Source: an uncultured delta proteobacterium
GTDB taxonomy: Bacteria; Myxococcota_A; Polyangia; Polyangiales; Polyangiaceae
Direction of reading: 5' to 3'
Assembly: GCA_963696385.1 (NCBI GenBank)
Contig: CAVOKF010000006.1
Span: 1-64,000 of the forward strand
DNA: 64,000 nucleotides
Shown here in pieces: positions 803 through 60,150 of this stretch. Position 1 is the first letter of the stretch. Each line of letters starts with the position of its first letter. Made by a program: the position numbers and the translations under genes. The notes below the pieces were generated by a model, which worked only from the letters and a program-made list of their open reading frames with translations, ran no database searches and was not told the DNA's origin.

Positions 803-810
803 CGATTTGG

Positions 811-973
811 AGTCTGGATCGTCGAAAACGCGCGCCATCGGATCGAGAAACACGGTAGCAGCCTCCTCGAACGACACGCCGTGCTTGCGTCGGTTCACGA
901 CCGCCTTTGCGGCATCCCATTCGAAGGAGAAAGAGCCGGCATCGAAGCGAACCGTGGTCATGAAACGCAGCAC
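811..973 (-). pseudogene. brnT: BrnT-family toxin, 3'-truncated
   Basis: [29 protein letters not shown] is the BrnT/DUF497 N-terminal signature. Similarity ends at the R tip at 810. Confidence 0.85.
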
Positions 974-1033
974 AACATCAGGATCTCACGTTAGCAGGCG
1001 CTACGGCGGCCGCCGGGCCGCCCGCCGAACGGG

Positions 1034-1099
1034 TTATATGTGACCGCCGCGGTTTCCGCGGCTCTTCGTTGATCGATACGCTTTCGACCGGCTACTCGC
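1034..1099 (-). repeat. R repeat, left half only
   Basis: Minus strand reads GCGAGTAGCCGGTCGAAAGCGTATCGATCAACGAAGAGCCGCGGAAACCGCGGCGGTCACAT, close to the copies at 46575 and 43690. Confidence 0.85.
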
Positions 1100-1492
1100 C
1101 GACGTCGTCTCGATCGCCGAGCCCGTCGACGCTTGGCTCATCCGGTCCTTCAGCCCTTGGTAATTCAAACGCGTCGCCCGCGACGTCGCCCACACCCCTT
1201 CGCGGCGAGCCACCTCGATCGCCGCGTTCCATAGCTCCTGCGGCACCCTCGACCGCTTGCCTCCGCATCCGGCTCGCCACCGCTCCATCCGCCCGCGCAG
1301 ACTTTCTAGAGCGCCCGTTGCCCCGATACTCGTTCGGTTCATCAGGTCTTCCTCCTGACCGCGACGCTGCCCGAGTCACGCGTCGACTTCACGCATTGTT
1401 GCCGAATGCCACCGCCGCCCGCCGCGACCTGCCCCTCTCGCACGCCCCCCCGCCAGACCCCCCTCGTACTCCCCGCCCCGCAGCCGTGCCGC
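1100..1492 (-). mobile_element. Fragment of the IS66-like element (tnpA-like 5' part), cut by R
   Basis: Near-identical to 52318-52711. ORF 1034..1342 matches 52147..52560 up to the R junction. Confidence 0.85.
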
Positions 1493-1911
1493 TAAAGGCG
1501 GCCGTGCCTTCCCATAAGTGCCTTCTGCTGCTCGCGGATGGATCTGGCCGAAGTGGCCCATGCCGCGGCTCCGCACTTTTGAGCAAGCAACGTGCGTTTG
1601 ACGACGGAGCTACTCCGCCAAATCGAGCGCAATGGCGAGGAGGGACGCGTGATGCTGGTGGCCAGCCTGGCGGGCATCACGCCGCTCGGCATGCCGCAGC
1701 AGCTTGGGTAGCTCACGCGCCGGGAGCTTCATTCCACGCGTCCACCGCACGAGCATCAGCTGGTACGGGTCGGCAGTGCTGCAGGGCGAACGGATCTGAC
1801 TCACGGCTCCTTCTAGATTCCCCATCTCCAGAGAATTACTCAGCTCCGAGGCCGGGCCACGCCCTCCTTGACCGCACCCCCCGGCAGAGCGCACAGTTTT
1901 GCTACGGCGAT

Positions 1912-2718
1912 ATGGAACCCTATGTCATCAAGCAAGGCGACCATCTTGCTCTTCTTGCTTACAAGTTCGGTTTCGATGCCGATGCCGTCTGGAACGACCC
2001 CGCCAACGACGCCCTTCGCAAGGTTCGGCCCAAACCGAACATTTTGCTGCCCGGTGACCAACTGTACATCCCCGACCGGGTCGACAAGAAGCCGGTGACA
2101 CTCGTCACGGGAGAGCTGAATACCTTCGTCTCTCCCGATCCACCGACGGTGACAATAACCCACCAGTTCGTCGGCAACGACGTCTCTGCTTACGCAACGA
2201 AGGCGTACTTGGTCCGGGAGATCGAGCAGCTGACCGGGCTCCAGACCGATGCCGACGGCGTGGTGAAGTTCGAGGCTCCCGTGACGCTCGACACCGCTAC
2301 TGTCGTCTTCACCGATACGGGCGAGTCGTGGGCGCTGGCTATTGGAAATCTGGACCCGATCGACACACCCGTCGGCGTCTTCGAGCGACTCCAAAATCTC
2401 GGCCACATCGATAGCACCGCCCAATACGATTTTTGGTGCTTGGCAAACAACCTCGACGTGATGCGCAGCGGTCTTCGCTCACTCAAGGGAGCCCAACCCG
2501 GCAGCAACCAGGCTGCTCCAGAGCCGGCGCCATCCGAGAGCGGTCCCCCGTCCTCGGCTCCGCCGAGTGGCTCGGGCTCGGCGTCCTCTTCGGGTCCACC
2601 GCTCTTGACCCAGGCCGGCAGCCTGGATCTGATGAACAGCGACATCTGTGGCCTGGCTGACGATGGCTCCCTCGACGCCGAGACCGCTGGTCTGCTGCTT
2701 CAGGTCTACGGTCACTGA
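1912..2718 (+). CDS. LysM-like / peptidoglycan-binding domain protein
   Basis: MEPYVIKQGDHLALLAYKFGFDADAVWNDPAN...NILLPGDQLYIP is LysM-like, followed by GNLDPIDTPVGVFERLQNLG. ATG 1912 is preferred over the ORF-track start. Confidence 0.75.
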   Translation: MEPYVIKQGDHLALLAYKFGFDADAVWNDPANDALRKVRPKPNILLPGDQLYIPDRVDKKPVTLVTGELNTFVSPDPPTVTITHQFVGNDVSAYATKAYLVREIEQLTGLQTDADGVVKFEAPVTLDTATVVFTDTGESWALAIGNLDPIDTPVGVFERLQNLGHIDSTAQYDFWCLANNLDVMRSGLRSLKGAQPGSNQAAPEPAPSESGPPSSAPPSGSGSASSSGPPLLTQAGSLDLMNSDICGLADDGSLDAETAGLLLQVYGH

Positions 2719-2790
2719 TGTTGAAAACCGATCCTTTGTGCGAAGCGATGCCTCACGGCTGAACCGATGAGCACCTGCTGAGTAGAGCGC

Positions 2791-3462
2791 GTGAGTACAG
2801 CAATGGCTGGACCTAACGATCCCCGCAAGGCAGGCGCGTCCCCTGCTCCGGCCCCATCCGGTTCGGGCTCCTCCGTTCCTGCCGGTACCCCTGCTCCCAC
2901 GATCGTACCGGTTGCGCCTGGCGAGAACGGTCATAGCGTGGCTCTGGCCGGTCCTGGCATCATCTACGCCAACCTGCGGGCACGGCCTGTCGACGGCGTT
3001 CCCCTCGCTTACCACCTTTATATCGAGTAAGTAAACACGAGCACGAACGAGCGGCTCATCTTCGAGGCGATGCCCGACTACACGAAGGGAGTCTTCGTGG
3101 ACGGACGCGAACAGCTTTACGGGTACCTGCACGGTATGGCCCCACGTCCCTGGGGGGTGCCTCGGGCAGATCCCGAAGCGACTGAATCCTTGCCGAGCGC
3201 ACATGAAGCCGAGGACAATGCCTACTCGCGCATGACCGGCGTGAATGGCCGCACGAAGTATCTCCTGGAATTTTGGCGGCGAATCTACAACACGCGCCAT
3301 ATTGTGTACGACGCGACCGGCAACAATAGCAACGTCTGGGCGGTCACCGTGGCGACGGGGAGCGGCCTCGAATGGCCGGATGGATTGCCCGTTTGGCGCG
3401 GCGAGTTGCCGGGGATTCCTTGGGCGCATACTTTCCGTGCAAATGACGAGGGTATGTTGTAG
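2791..3462 (+). pseudogene. Hypothetical protein (possible effector/toxin) split by one in-frame TAA
   Basis: ORFs 2791..3030 and 3070..3462 share a frame: YHLYIE*VNTSTNERLIFEAMP. Confidence 0.6.
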
Positions 3463-58176: not shown

Positions 58177-58270
58177 GGCGCGATCCGAGCCGATCCGAGG
58201 GCGATCATCAAGGCTTGTTCGCCACCGACTCCTGAGCGATCGTGCGGCGGAGGAGGGAAGTAGCCAACAC

Positions 58271-58617
58271 GGGGCGTTGGACACGCTCAAAGCAAGGTCC
58301 TTGAGCGTCGGCGCGCGTTCGCGATCGCCGACGGGAATACCGACAGCGATTTTTTCGGCTCCGTGAAACCGGCATGCCATCGGTGTATTCCGAGCACGGG
58401 CGCGTGAGCCAAGTTCCCCGCTTTTAAAGAGCAGATCGCGTGCCGAAGCGTTGTCGCTGCGGCTCCGTCCAAGTGGACGATTGAGCAACTGCGCCGATAC
58501 GCCTCGACGCTCATCGCACGCGTCACGGGCGCAGTCGCACAATCGCCTATTATTTATGTGACTGCGGCGGTTTCCCGGTCTCTTCGTTGGCCGATACGCT
58601 TTGGAGCGACTATTCGC
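58271..58617 (-). repeat. Long R variant with ~88 extra bp
   Basis: Left 62 nt match 43690; the extension matches 48246-48440. Confidence 0.88.
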
Positions 58618-58903
58618 TTTCGATCGAACGGATGCGGTTTCACACCCATTACTTTTATCACGATTGCGTCCATGGCAACCCATGTGTCGGTCGGTCGGGG
58701 GGCTCGCGCTACATCGTTCAAGCGTCATGAGGGGACGATCGCGCAAGCCGAGGAGTTTTCGAACTGCGTCAGGAAGGGGGAGTCAGGCGCCCGACGTGTG
58801 CCAACCGCGACATTTCAATCGTGGGATTTGCACGTAAGGTCAGTTCCCGTCTTGCGAGAGCCACAATGGGCGCGCCTGGTCCGCGGCTTGCTGGTCGTCG
58901 GTT

Positions 58904-59674
58904 GTGCTTTCACGCCAAGCGCTCATCGCCTCCGTGCTGCTTGTCGCGCTCACCGCGTCCTGCGGCAGCTCCCCGGCCGGGCCTGACATGATGGACGCGG
59001 GCCCTGGTGACGCGACCAGCAGCGCAGCCGACGACGCCCACGGCGGAACCACAGAGGGCGGTGATACGAGCGTGGGCTCGACAGAATCCGACGGCGAATC
59101 GGGGACCGACGGTGCGCCGTACGACGCCTCACCGGCCGACGCGGAAAAGGGAGACGCTCGGGCACCGGCCGACGGCGGAGAAGACGCACCGCCGAACGCC
59201 GTCGTGGACGGCGGAGTGGCGTGCGGTCCCAAGCGGTGCGATCCCGGCCTCGACTGCTGCGATCCAAGCTGCGGCCTCTGCGCATTGAGCACCGTCTGCG
59301 CGGAGATGGGGGTCTGCGCTCCCCCGGCGGACGCGCAGCCGCCGAACACGTGCGGATCGCAGACCTGCTCGCAGCGGCAGGTATGTGTCTATTCGGTTCT
59401 CGGCGGTACCCCGGCCCAGTGCACGCCACTCAACGACGCGGACTCGTGTGCGTCTGGAACCTCGTATACGCCGACGTGTCCGAACCTGAACGACCGTCCG
59501 GGCTGTATCGGGCCTTCGCCATCGCCGCAGCCTCTGGGGTGCATCGACATTCCGGCGTCCTGCGGCACGGTCCTTCAATGCGCGTGTTTTCCACCCGGCG
59601 TGTGCGCCGACGCGGGTGGCACCGCGACATGCGCCATCGTCAACTCCCTATCACTCACGTGCGCCACCGAGTGA
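58904..59674 (+). CDS. Cys-rich lipoprotein
   Basis: TASC lipobox, DAG/DGG linkers, many Cys. Confidence 0.8.
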   Translation: MLSRQALIASVLLVALTASCGSSPAGPDMMDAGPGDATSSAADDAHGGTTEGGDTSVGSTESDGESGTDGAPYDASPADAEKGDARAPADGGEDAPPNAVVDGGVACGPKRCDPGLDCCDPSCGLCALSTVCAEMGVCAPPADAQPPNTCGSQTCSQRQVCVYSVLGGTPAQCTPLNDADSCASGTSYTPTCPNLNDRPGCIGPSPSPQPLGCIDIPASCGTVLQCACFPPGVCADAGGTATCAIVNSLSLTCATE

Positions 59675-59871
59675 ACGGAAGGAACCGCGGGGTCGAGCTC
59701 GTGGAGCTGGCGCGGCACCGCTCGCGCGCTGGTTCGGTGGCGCGCATGCCGGTCGTTGGTGGCTGGTCCTCCAAGTCTTGCCGATTCGCAAGGCAAGCTG
59801 ACTGCAAACTTTGGCATCAACTGGGGCCCCGCGCGCCACCGTGCGCTCACGTGCGGCGTGCGCTAGCGCTA

Positions 59872-59965
59872 GTACCCCGATTCCATGAAACGGAGGGGTG
59901 AGACCACCCGATCCCGTCGGGAATATCGCGGAAAACGACCCTTCCATTCCGCGGAATCGAGGTAC
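59872..59965 (-). mobile_element. 94-bp MITE
   Basis: Same as 56749-56842, CTAG at both ends. Confidence 0.92.
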
Positions 59966-60043
59966 TAGCCCCGATCTGACATTCGTAGCGAAAAGGTTGT
60001 GAGACAGGAAATCGCCTGTTTGTTCGTGTTTGTCTCGCGTTGT

Positions 60044-60150
60044 AAGCACGTCGGTCGACGAAGAGCCCGCGGAGGCGGGCGCGGAAACATATCGCGTCTT
60101 ATATCGCGTCTTAGGAGCGTCCGTTGCCACTGAAAGTACCGTCCAATTGG
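60044..60150 (+). repeat. R repeat lacking its left tip, with an internal 12-bp duplication
   Basis: AAGCACGTCGGTCGACGAAGAGCCCGCGGAGG...(TATCGCGTCTTA)x2...CCAATTGG. Confidence 0.85.

Follow-up and report, generated by a model that had tools for sequence, protein, structure and literature searches.

In the 64,000-nucleotide stretch of DNA analyzed here (the window), a repeat of about 110 bp, GCGA(G/A)TAG…CGATTTG, designated R, sits at seams that join unrelated or truncated DNA segments. R probably represents the terminal module at the ori end (oriIS) of a divergent rolling-circle transposon of the IS91/ISCR family, with solo copies being miniature, non-autonomous derivatives. We read it as an amplified ori-end module because of its link to a transposase and the recurrence of the same end in other genera. 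An earlier note on this DNA had proposed either a non-autonomous element belonging to an HUH/IS91-like transposase and causing one-ended insertions, or a recombination site, with a Cre-like recombinase as a candidate enzyme. This interpretation was partly supported: the transposase link (7 of 7 cases), recurrence across genera and nested cargo favor the first possibility, and the second was not supported.

Using nhmmer, we identified 104 R matches in the 6.9-Mb genome, 46 of which were full. Window matches scored 40-110 bits, far beyond chance, except for one at 48702-48810 (21.5 bits), and the family is real and present where it had been described. As also claimed previously, the ends are fixed and asymmetric, being sharp across 38 aligned full copies. 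Inverted ends were absent, the left end not being the reverse complement of the right end, and no target duplication was found: in 39 two-ended copies, flank matches did not exceed 1 nt, equal to those of shuffled partners. The flank constraint was confined to two positions: of 64 distinct left flanks, 60 had a purine at -1, and of 54 distinct right flanks, 51 had one at +1. RNAalifold returned no consensus structure for R; the mean fold z-score was -1.37, with 8 of 35 sequences below -2, and R hairpins are without rigorous covariation support. No R match was detected in 72,556 plasmid records.

Full copies were located on the forward strand of the window at 4037-4146 (110 bits), 31685-31789 (87.2 bits, with a short right-end variant …CGGCGATTTG), 43690-43798 (86.9 bits, GCGAATAG sub-type) and 46575-46684 (107.5 bits). 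Partial copies included R positions 1-75 on the reverse strand at 1025-1099 (58.8 bits) and positions 17-110 on the forward strand at 60044-60150 (66.6 bits), the latter with an 11-nt internal duplication and a CCAATTGG right-end variant. Most copies listed in the earlier note were recovered, with three corrections. The copy assigned to 58271 on the reverse strand is actually R positions 1-65 at 58553-58617 (47.5 bits), position 58271 marking the lower limit of a longer repeat in which this copy lies. The copy assigned to 48701 is weak, with only about 48784-48810 being R-like. Finally, the right tip assigned to 803 is a possible forward-strand tip at 782..808, below the nhmmer threshold, where about 22 nt match the variant CCGGTTCAGAGTCGATTTGG; it resembles variant right ends at C4:1135639 and C6:110897 and is preceded by non-R DNA.

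R is itself a target of at least five other mobile elements, including group II introns, an IS110-type element and an IS4-like IS, which strike it at fixed positions. Left and right sub-types of R do reassort, as claimed earlier, but many of the apparent halves are copies split in this way. One forward-strand copy is divided into positions 1-16 (18170-18185) and positions 17-108 (22245-22335, 82.8 bits) by 4.06 kb of nested group II introns (GTGCGAC…CTCGAC; 18186-22244, forward strand) inserted between R positions 16 and 17. These introns match Rfam RF02005 at 18264-18490 and RF02003 at 20225-20363, the inner one starts near 18262, and two RT/maturase ORFs score 323 and 366 bits with TIGR04416. 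The same intron 3′ end adjoins R position 17 in four copies. A 16-nt forward-strand tip of R (positions 1-16) at 39025-39040, part of an identical 300-nt repeat shared with 18169-18468, leads into a truncated version of these introns (39041 to about 40480, with RF02005 at 39119-39345). The right end of R at 22245-22335 is cut by an element with an IS110-family (RNA-guided) transposase (22336-23740, forward strand, right limit approximate; NF033542 216.7 bits, Pfam DEDD_Tnp_IS110 and Transposase_20), and this junction, GATT followed by AGATGAACC, is common to six copies. On the forward strand at 48184-48248 (40 bits), R positions 1-65 pass into the start of another element (TAATAGGCGATT…), a junction that occurs in five copies; a right-half remnant of R on the same strand at 48784-48810 (CTTTGGGGCGTTCGTTCTCACTGAAAC, repeat family D7) is probably the other part of this copy. 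In addition, an element with an rve-type (integrase-core) transposase (Pfam rve_3, rve, HTH_32) extends from R 58553-58617 down to about 57100.

The earlier note found no cognate enzyme, which is correct for the window only: the nearest intact transposase gene is found at about 129.3-131.0 kb of the contig that holds the window. In tblastn searches, all seven Y2/HUH transposase genes or fragments that retain the C-terminus have R about 67 nt past the stop codon, and none ends at a non-R TTTG. The DNA directly after GATTTG in seven R copies is one element, whose protein matches Pfam Y2_Tnp (85 bits, cut-off 20.9) and Zn_Tnp_IS91 (62 bits, cut-off 26.3) and has an invariant HUH motif. Read on the strand of R, this element of about 2.0 kb consists of R (110 nt), 67 nt, an antisense tnpA encoding a 569-aa HUH/Y2 transposase, and an ill-defined ter side. 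Its copies cease to be alike at about 2.0 kb, although the likeness extends further in two, and inverted R copies are reached in two; the ter side has no clean limit and is unlike the right end of R. The transposase falls below curated NCBIfam cut-offs (286 vs 925 bits for ISCR clade Ia, 97 vs 125 for IS91), and the nearest plasmid-borne transposases, annotated as IS91, are about 31% identical. The earlier note had held that a match of the R halves to ends of a catalogued element would refute its view. In spirit this applies, as the left end of R appears to be the ori end of an IS, but of a lineage uncatalogued in the collections searched. The sole piece of this element within the window is a 68-nt ori-proximal body fragment at 49994-50061 (forward strand), 95.6% identical to +39 to +106 after the R at C6:129221, from which metagenome contigs run on into a full body.

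The same end, starting with GCGC(A/G)TAGG, was found in three other genera whose transposases are 40–59% identical, and two of the three also have solo modules of 100–106 nt. In G175 (59% identity), similarity among three copies sets in 4 nt ahead of GCGCATAGG; this motif forms the left end of an R-like module of 100 nt, located 40 nt from the tnpA stop. The module has 41 matches, 19 of full length and including one head-to-tail pair, compared to 3 tnpA genes. In G309 (three copies) and G038 (two copies), whose transposases are 40-42% identical, the flanks are unrelated up to an ori-side boundary at GCGCGTAGG; two more bases (GA) are shared in G038, where the boundary is exact only within 2 nt. 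G309 also has a fixed ori end with variable extent, one pair ending at 1801 nt and another at 2228 nt, at 100% identity, and one solo copy, in tandem with a full one, that corresponds precisely to the initial 106 nt of the element. The end sequence thus diverges together with the transposase across the four genera.

These observations bear on the possibility that R is an independent repeat, spread by another route, that serves as a preferred landing site, with the IS91-type element inserting beside its TTTG as IS91 does beside CTTG. Fixed-position strikes by other elements fit this idea, as do the resemblance of TTTG/AACAG to a junction of target tetranucleotide and oriIS and the fact that near-identical IS bodies carry differing R sub-types. 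However, the multi-copy elements of G175, G309 and G038 begin at GCGC(A/G)TAGG and not past it (within 2-4 nt in G175 and G038), module and transposase diverge together, R and not other TTTG sites lies at the tnpA 3′ ends, and the G309 miniature is the element's own beginning. We therefore consider a landing site unlikely. R sub-types on IS91 bodies do differ more from one another than the bodies do, which requires recombination among R copies or repeated re-association.

Even less probable, and largely refuted, is the reading of R as a site, integron attC-like or Xer/dif-like, where a tyrosine recombinase exchanges cassettes by site-specific recombination. In its favor, attC sites are known targets of group II introns and IS110-type elements, both found in R. 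Moreover, gene segments of the window are bounded by same-strand arrays of R, the cargo includes toxin-antitoxin and defence genes, and a tyrosine recombinase is encoded at 11612-12679. Nevertheless, this enzyme, the Cre-like candidate of the earlier note, is a generic, weakly Xer-like protein that scores 26 bits with the integron-integrase model (cut-off 265), and no genome-wide association of it with R was found. The lack of a consensus hairpin, the occurrence of R on both strands in many clusters, segments of 1.6-14 kb with truncated genes and IS fragments, and the physical inclusion of R in an IS91-type element in four genera also argue against such a site.

As reported earlier, R ends cut genes exactly in at least two cases. 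The left end of the copy at 1025-1099 adjoins a truncated IS66-type copy, of which five intact paralogs read through 1099/1100, and the right end of the copy at 31685-31789 adjoins a 5′-truncated SDR gene, of which the intact paralog at C2:55076 reads through. Also in agreement with the earlier note, no copy was flanked by halves of one gene: none of the 46 full copies had an uninterrupted match to its joined flanks (an empty site), two joined-flank matches being self-overlaps with neighboring R copies. For all 16 junctions with R-less paralogs, the lost half was absent from the rest of the genome. Right flanks were common to 21 of 67 R copies and left flanks to 6 of 69, all six being C6/C7 duplicates. 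The cargo is nested: R plus 820 nt at C6:107811 matches, at 99.8% identity, the first part of a unit at C4:1023129 that consists of R plus 2461 nt, the shared segment stopping where the next R begins and the continuation existing only at C4. Pieces of the element body anchored by R were 2267, 2009, 732 and about 440 nt long. In the window, R at 46575 and about 860 nt of right-hand DNA are common to C4:1147307 (reverse strand), and its junctions are identical in an independent assembly, L023 (99.2% identity); the left flank of R at 4037 also occurs on C7, there with a different right flank. Metagenome contigs yielded neither a circle nor an excision junction.

A possible, though less favored, explanation is that R is an IS91 ori-end miniature but the seams arose mainly by later homologous recombination and deletions among R copies and other island repeats. 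R copies are 85-100% alike and clustered (73 of 80 within 32% of the genome), and their left and right sub-types reassort. Neighboring copies show no strand bias (27 same-strand vs 22 opposite pairs less than 10 kb apart), and the plus-strand excess noted earlier (9 of 11) was local, with 47 plus and 33 minus among 80 matches of at least 40 bits genome-wide. At the counterpart of C4:1147992, R is intact in G003, whereas in G000 it is inserted by an IS that is in turn truncated by a second R. Bardaji et al. 2011 (PMC3189936) likewise attribute most genomic IS801 fragments to reorganization rather than one-ended transposition. On the other hand, reciprocal exchange should leave the other halves beside other R copies, which was the case at none of the 16 junctions. 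Nested cargo with a common start and variable ends, together with the asymmetry between right and left flank sharing, is unexpected from symmetric recombination, and the purines preferred at the two junctions suggest that an enzyme's rule governs the joining. We infer that capture, rather than later recombination or deletion, is behind most breakpoints.

The nearest known counterparts of R are the ori-end miniatures of IS801 in Pseudomonas syringae (229, 360 and 679 nt, in 26% of events), described with IS801 carriage of adjacent gene fragments in PMC3189936. Like R, these are continuous pieces from the ori (right) terminus to an internal stop, without inverted repeats, and like the parent of R, IS801 carries adjacent gene fragments along. 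IS801 miniatures are moved by a transposase from elsewhere; for R, supply in trans is a proposal. R differs in being shorter (100-110 nt), diversified into sub-types and present as a module in other genera, in exceeding full elements about tenfold (46 full solo and about 50 partial copies vs 4 near-complete elements), and in ending at a hairpin and …TG instead of a tetranucleotide resembling that of the element's own left end. It was never seen as a simple insertion, and its mobility is putative.

The parent element shares with IS91, IS1294 and ISCR a Y2 transposase with a zinc module and HUH motif, ori downstream of tnpA, two unlike ends, no target duplication, a fixed ori and variable ter, and capture of neighboring DNA. 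It differs in a transposase only about 31% identical to annotated plasmid IS91 transposases, scores below NCBIfam cut-offs, a ter that is not definable, and a flanking purine in place of a CTTG or GTTC target. For IS91, whose ends, mini-elements and one-ended transposition are treated in PMC13181058, TTTG was used once in 240 insertions, with T conserved at position 2. Eukaryotic Helitrons such as Helraiser (PMC4778049) offer an analogy only, without homology: they share HUH rolling-circle movement, asymmetric ends, a terminator hairpin near one end and read-through capture of gene fragments, but have a Rep-helicase fusion and other protein architecture. Integron attC arrays and CALINs also have repeats of about 100 nt that bound gene segments and attract group II introns and IS110-type elements; R differs in lacking an integron integrase or conserved folded site, occurring on both strands, bounding truncated-gene cargo and being part of a transposon end.

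Several observations run against our reading of R as an ori-end module. Among those given above are the ter side unlike the right end of R, the divergence of R sub-types on IS91 bodies, the weak case for hairpins, the transposase scores below cut-offs, the conclusion of Bardaji et al. and the lack of circle or excision junctions. The classical IS91 target tetranucleotide by oriIS (CTTG or GTTC) is absent, only a purine being preferred; pure tandem pasting predicts a strand bias of neighbors, which is not seen; and with no simple insertion among the 46 full copies, movement of solo R as a unit is putative.

We suggest that a transposase supplied in trans would nick R at its left end, where a purine borders the conserved ori terminus GCG-N-R-TAGG on the outside, and displace the strand. 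A stop 110 nt on, at the right end of R (subterminal hairpin and …TTTG), would yield solo R; both the strand-transfer chemistry and this termination are putative. Alternatively, read-through into the element body or any right-hand DNA (one-ended transposition) would yield R with cargo of variable length, stopping at a pseudo-terminus and inserted at another place, in many cases where a resident R ends. The nested cargo, missing halves and right-flank sharing fit such capture. One-ended rolling-circle transposition may thus explain the fixed asymmetric ends without inverted repeats or target duplication, the truncated genes at both ends and the R-bounded arrays.

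The ~110-bp repeat family R was confirmed at the places where the earlier note had listed it. In the source genome (G000; 6.94 Mb, 66% G+C, 8 contigs, with the window as the first 64 kb of contig C6), a profile built from full copies yielded 104 matches, 46 of them essentially full length. When 38 full copies were aligned together with their flanks, similarity began abruptly at GCGA(G/A)TAG and ended as abruptly at CGATTTG, and the flanks were unrelated. The left end, GCGAGTAG…, and the right end, …CGATTTG, are not complementary, i.e., R has two unlike ends and lacks terminal inverted repeats. 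No target-site duplication was found in the 39 copies with both ends, in which direct matches between flanks never exceeded 1 nt, as was also the case for shuffled partners. Outside R, one position per end was constrained: a purine preceded the left end in 60 of the 64 distinct left flanks and followed the right end in 51 of the 54 distinct right ones (chi-square 50.8 for position -1; positions -2 to -8 not significant).

IS91/ISCR ends are characterized by imperfect subterminal palindromes. Hairpins were predicted in most variants of the R right half and in the related modules of two other genera discussed below (mean fold z-score -1.37); alifold gave no consensus structure for R, and no rigorous covariation supporting the hairpins was detected. 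The copies are clustered: 73 of 80 matches of at least 40 bits were confined to 32% of the genome, made up of contig C2 (143 kb) and the 150 kb nearest to each contig end. Of these 80 matches, 47 were on the + strand and 33 on the - strand. Thus, the plus-strand bias noted previously (9 of 11 copies) holds within the window and disappears genome-wide, where neighbors within 10 kb shared a strand 27 times and were opposed 22 times.

Although a 110-bp repeat may mislead assemblers at R junctions, those at 46575 and 48184 were reproduced in an outside record from an independent assembly, L023 (99.2% identity over 3.7 kb), and further R junctions were reproduced by other loci in independent assemblies. 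L023 is binned as Acidobacteriaceae; it matches window 44675-48348, including two R copies, and diverges upstream of position 44675, and is either a mis-binned contig or the result of a recent transfer. In metagenome contigs (4 runs from 4 studies), summed depth at R was 10-60x that of the flanks, which fits a multi-copy repeat; no excision or circle junction was read from these contigs, which are fragmentary and broken at R, and this has no bearing either way.

The enzyme was found outside the window. Directly after GATTTG, seven R copies continued into a common sequence, which proved to be a ~2-kb element. It carries a 569-aa ORF that is oriented towards R, with its stop codon 67 nt away from R. 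The product contains the Pfam domains Y2_Tnp and Zn_Tnp_IS91, which scored 85.2 and 62.3 bits, respectively, each exceeding its cut-off, and its HFH (HUH motif) and Cys clusters were invariant in 11 aligned homologs. Its best NCBIfam match was ISCR clade Ia, with a score under the curated whole-protein cut-offs, and it is therefore regarded as a divergent IS91/ISCR member. By tblastn, the genome has four near-complete tnpA genes (one at C6:129291-130997) and three C-terminal fragments, with R at the 3′ end in 7 of 7, and every near-complete element begins with R. No tnpA gene is present within the 64-kb window, where the only piece of the element is a 68-nt body fragment (49994-50061). The ori and ter sides of the element are unlike each other; no clean definition of the ter end was reached for the full element, and no R-like ter in direct orientation was found in it. 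An origin of R as a segment between two tandem ori-like sites was rejected, as internal repeats passed a shuffle test (p < 0.05) in just 2 of 6 elements.

These data support one of the two readings in the earlier note, a non-autonomous IS91/HUH element, and supply the enzyme then missing. R is a miniature of the ori end of a divergent IS91/ISCR lineage, amplified and diversified. Its parent shares with this family an HUH Y2 transposase whose N terminus bears a zinc-binding module, the unlike ends without terminal inverted repeats or target-site duplication, and, as genomic footprints, an oriIS downstream of tnpA that forms the fixed end opposite a variable ter side. It differs in target: known members have a specific CTTG, GTTC or GTCC flanking oriIS, whereas no target of this type was found beside the R ori end, where among 64 distinct left flanks only position -1 was biased, towards a purine. 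The classical IS91/ISCR oriIS terminus may be the complement of GGATAGG, from which we draw no evidence here.

The other previous reading, a recombination site, is not supported; as an integron attC or a Xer-type site, R fails on recombinase, structure and orientation. Integron attC sites go with an integron integrase and are folded sites with conserved R''/R' cores in a single orientation, whereas the recombinase here had a TIGR02249 score of 26 bits against a cut-off of 265, R gave no consensus structure, and its copies are on both strands. R is not a MITE, having neither terminal inverted repeats nor target-site duplication. Rfam detected nothing at R and, at gathering thresholds, only group II intron domains in the window; there was no tRNA in the window. 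The left-end TAG and synonymous-looking variants raised the possibility that R represents the 3′ end of ORFs; however, 67 copies showed no upstream frame preference.

A 290-bp repeat of Saprospiraceae (L015, L022, L024-L026, L029 and L033; MAG record) was also considered as kin. It is A+T-rich with strong hairpins, and has GCGAATAG, AACGAAGAG, GCAGTCA and CCGATTTGG in common with R at similar spacing. Seven pattern-scan loci share three blocks and their spacing, yet they were missed by the R profile; kinship is unsupported, because they would be accounted for by a single chance match that a repeat family then multiplied, and the likeness may reflect either chance or a very distant relationship. 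No Rfam family matched this repeat, and permissive Rfam scans of it and of window 43600-46800 gave chance hairpin matches only. About six single pattern matches to R in other phyla seem to be due to chance.

Transposases of this lineage are frequent in the phylum, with a match in 93 of 401 genomes searched, and R-type modules beside the transposases were examined in four genera. In G175, a genome of another genus (transposase 59% identical), similarity among three copies sets in 4 nt before GCGCATAGG, which is where a 100-nt module located 40 nt from the tnpA stop has its left end. Solo modules in this genome were 100% identical to the first 100 nt of the element; the module had 41 matches, 19 of full length and one head-to-tail pair among them, against 3 tnpA genes. 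In G309 and G038, from two further genera (40-42% identity), identical copies have their ori-side boundary at GCGCGTAGG with unrelated flanks and, in G309, a purine outside. The ori boundary was common to three copies in G309 (exact), three in G175 (within 4 nt) and two in G038 (within 2 nt, two extra bases being shared). The one solo copy in G309 is exactly the first 106 nt, is in tandem with a full copy and ends in a hairpin plus …GACG. The GCG-N-R-TAGG terminus and the detachable ~100-110-nt module are thus features of the lineage, and, judging from sequence, the module diverges together with its transposase. A striking one-directional array was observed at G309:C2:14564-150651, where thirteen ori regions of the related IS91-type element, 100% identical, lie on one strand within 136 kb.

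Modules end in …TTTG (source genome), …GGTG (G175) and …GACG (G309), and the ter sides of the parents in …CCGC, …ACCC(C/G), and …CTCA or …GACA, respectively; no tetranucleotide common to both ends was evident in these three genomes. In IS801-type miniatures, the inner end is a tetranucleotide homologous to the ter end of the parent. R itself was limited at the BLAST level to the source genome and one other of 25 genomes of the genus, and was not found in 16 genomes of other families of the order; more diverged modules would escape a search of this kind. Since the other R-bearing genome contains the mobile pieces of the window at 99-100% identity without its cargo, R belongs to a horizontally shared pool. 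No match to R occurred among 72,556 plasmid records, and the closest annotated plasmid transposases were ~31% identical.

Many "half" copies are R interrupted at fixed positions (numbered from the left end) by other mobile elements, which explains the "split", "tip" and several "half" copies of the earlier note. Two nested group II introns, identified by Rfam and their RT/maturases, lie between R positions 16 and 17 (window 18186-22244), and a truncated copy of this arrangement follows the R tip at 39025 (39041-40480). As the identical intron 3′ end adjoins R17 in 4 genome copies, the intron appears to home to R. A 1.47-kb IS4/IS1634-like IS occupies R positions 63-72, with its own inverted ends, a 10-bp duplication and at least 10 copies in both orientations; its insertion at four loci had suggested a long or parent form, R(1-72)…R(63-110), which is rejected. 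Copies outside the window, e.g., G000:C6:108748-110223 and at least nine others, are flanked by ATAACCCGTT or ATCGCGTCTT as the duplication. It is always at positions 63-72, a targeting strict to an unusual degree for a DDE IS. An rve-type element follows R position 65 (window 48249 and 58552) and a further element position 90 (three copies). Finally, an IS110-family RNA-guided transposase element lies near position 108, directly after GATT (window 22336-23740; 6 copies at the identical point), and its guide RNA would be expected to match R. R thus serves at least five other kinds of mobile element as a common insertion target.

The claim that R ends cut genes exactly was borne out in the two window cases checked directly: an IS66-type copy is cut at 1099/1100, a point across which 5 intact paralogs continue, and an SDR gene is cut at the right end of the full R copy at 31685-31789(+), where a paralog on C2 reads through. 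At ~20 junctions for which an R-less paralog of the flank (IS copies or genes) was available, the continuation of the paralog always differed from the other side of R. In silico joining of the flanks of the 46 full copies gave no uninterrupted match (the 2 matches obtained were self-overlaps) and no empty site. Of the 16 junctions that could be tested, none had its missing half elsewhere in the genome, whether beside another R or otherwise; a split-target model, with target halves C and D outside an R1-cargo-R2 unit, was rejected for these junctions because the missing half was never beside another R.

These footprints agree with one-ended rolling-circle transposition from the R left end. Flanks were shared among R copies far more often on the right (21 of 67) than on the left (6 of 69). 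The R copy at C6:107811 with its following 820 nt is the start of the R plus 2461 nt at C4:1023129 (99.8% identity); the C6 unit stops at the start of the next R, and the continuation exists only at C4. R-anchored pieces of element body in the source genome measured 2267, 2009, 732 and ~440 nt, in G309 a fixed ori end was paired with ter-side ends at 1801 and 2228 nt, and head-to-tail module pairs were seen in G175 and G309. In IS91, transposition starts at oriIS downstream of tnpA, the ends are unlike, no duplication is made, termination fails often, and mini-elements retaining 82-89 bp from each end are able to transpose (PMC13181058). The closest known system is IS801, which gave rise to ori-end miniatures of 229, 360 and 679 nt in 26% of events and also carried gene fragments along (PMC3189936), a direct experimental precedent; there as in the source genome, G175 and G309, the copy is the ori-proximal stretch of the parent from the ori terminus.

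By this mechanism, solo R would itself be mobilized, its right end would serve as a stop signal, and capture would have made most breakpoints. A live alternative is that later recombination or deletion between R copies made most of them. It is sustained by the reassortment of R sub-types, the lack of strand bias between neighboring copies and the reservations that the IS801 authors themselves expressed about IS801 fragments (PMC3189936). Building on one-ended transposition, a bolder reading, which we regard as possible rather than probable, is that R is more than debris of one-ended events: a self-propagating ~110-bp miniature rolling-circle transposon with its own start and stop signals, repeatedly pasting R plus captured gene fragments at resident R ends. 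If true, R would be among the smallest HUH-mobilized elements, and pasting at resident R would give rise to cassette-like islands, in what would be the bacterial counterpart of gene capture by Helitrons. Such islands would in turn offer insertion targets to introns and to RNA-guided and DDE transposons.

Between the R copies of the window, Pfam identified defense and addiction cargo (6000-8047, 24516-24899, 40450-40833 and 50552-51463), comprising Shedu SduA_C, a D12 adenine methyltransferase, a ParE toxin, a zeta-toxin fragment and a Druantia DruA-like protein. Other repeats were also observed. A 100-nt repeat with inverted termini CTAGTACC…GGTACTAG (48508-48703, in tandem at 48508/48604; 56746-56845; 59869-59968) occurs in both orientations and looks like a separate MITE-like element. 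An A+T-richer repeat is present at 676-810, where an R-like right tip comes next at 803, and at 23983-24189, including an 85-nt tandem duplication (24020-24189) that ends in CCGGTTCAGAGT. A three-unit tandem repeat at 26606-27049 (78-79% identity), probably inside a coding region, is unrelated to R in sequence, and the likeness of its 111-nt period to the length of R is a coincidence.

IS91/ISCR elements have been blamed for the spread of resistance and virulence genes via one-ended transposition, and to our knowledge their non-autonomous derivatives are hardly documented. According to PMC6218425, ISCR transposition has so far had no experimental demonstration. The present analysis describes a natural system from soil Myxococcota: an ori-end module of 100-110 nt, conserved alongside its transposase across genera, has been amplified to ~100 copies. 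Its termini, GCG-N-R-TAGG on the left and a hairpin plus …TG on the right, offer short, concrete substrates for the start and stop of HUH Y2 enzymes. For annotators and assemblers, a class of unannotated repeats at breakpoints in such genomes is explained, and R marks the seams of accessory-gene islands with defense, toxin-antitoxin and metal-resistance cargo.
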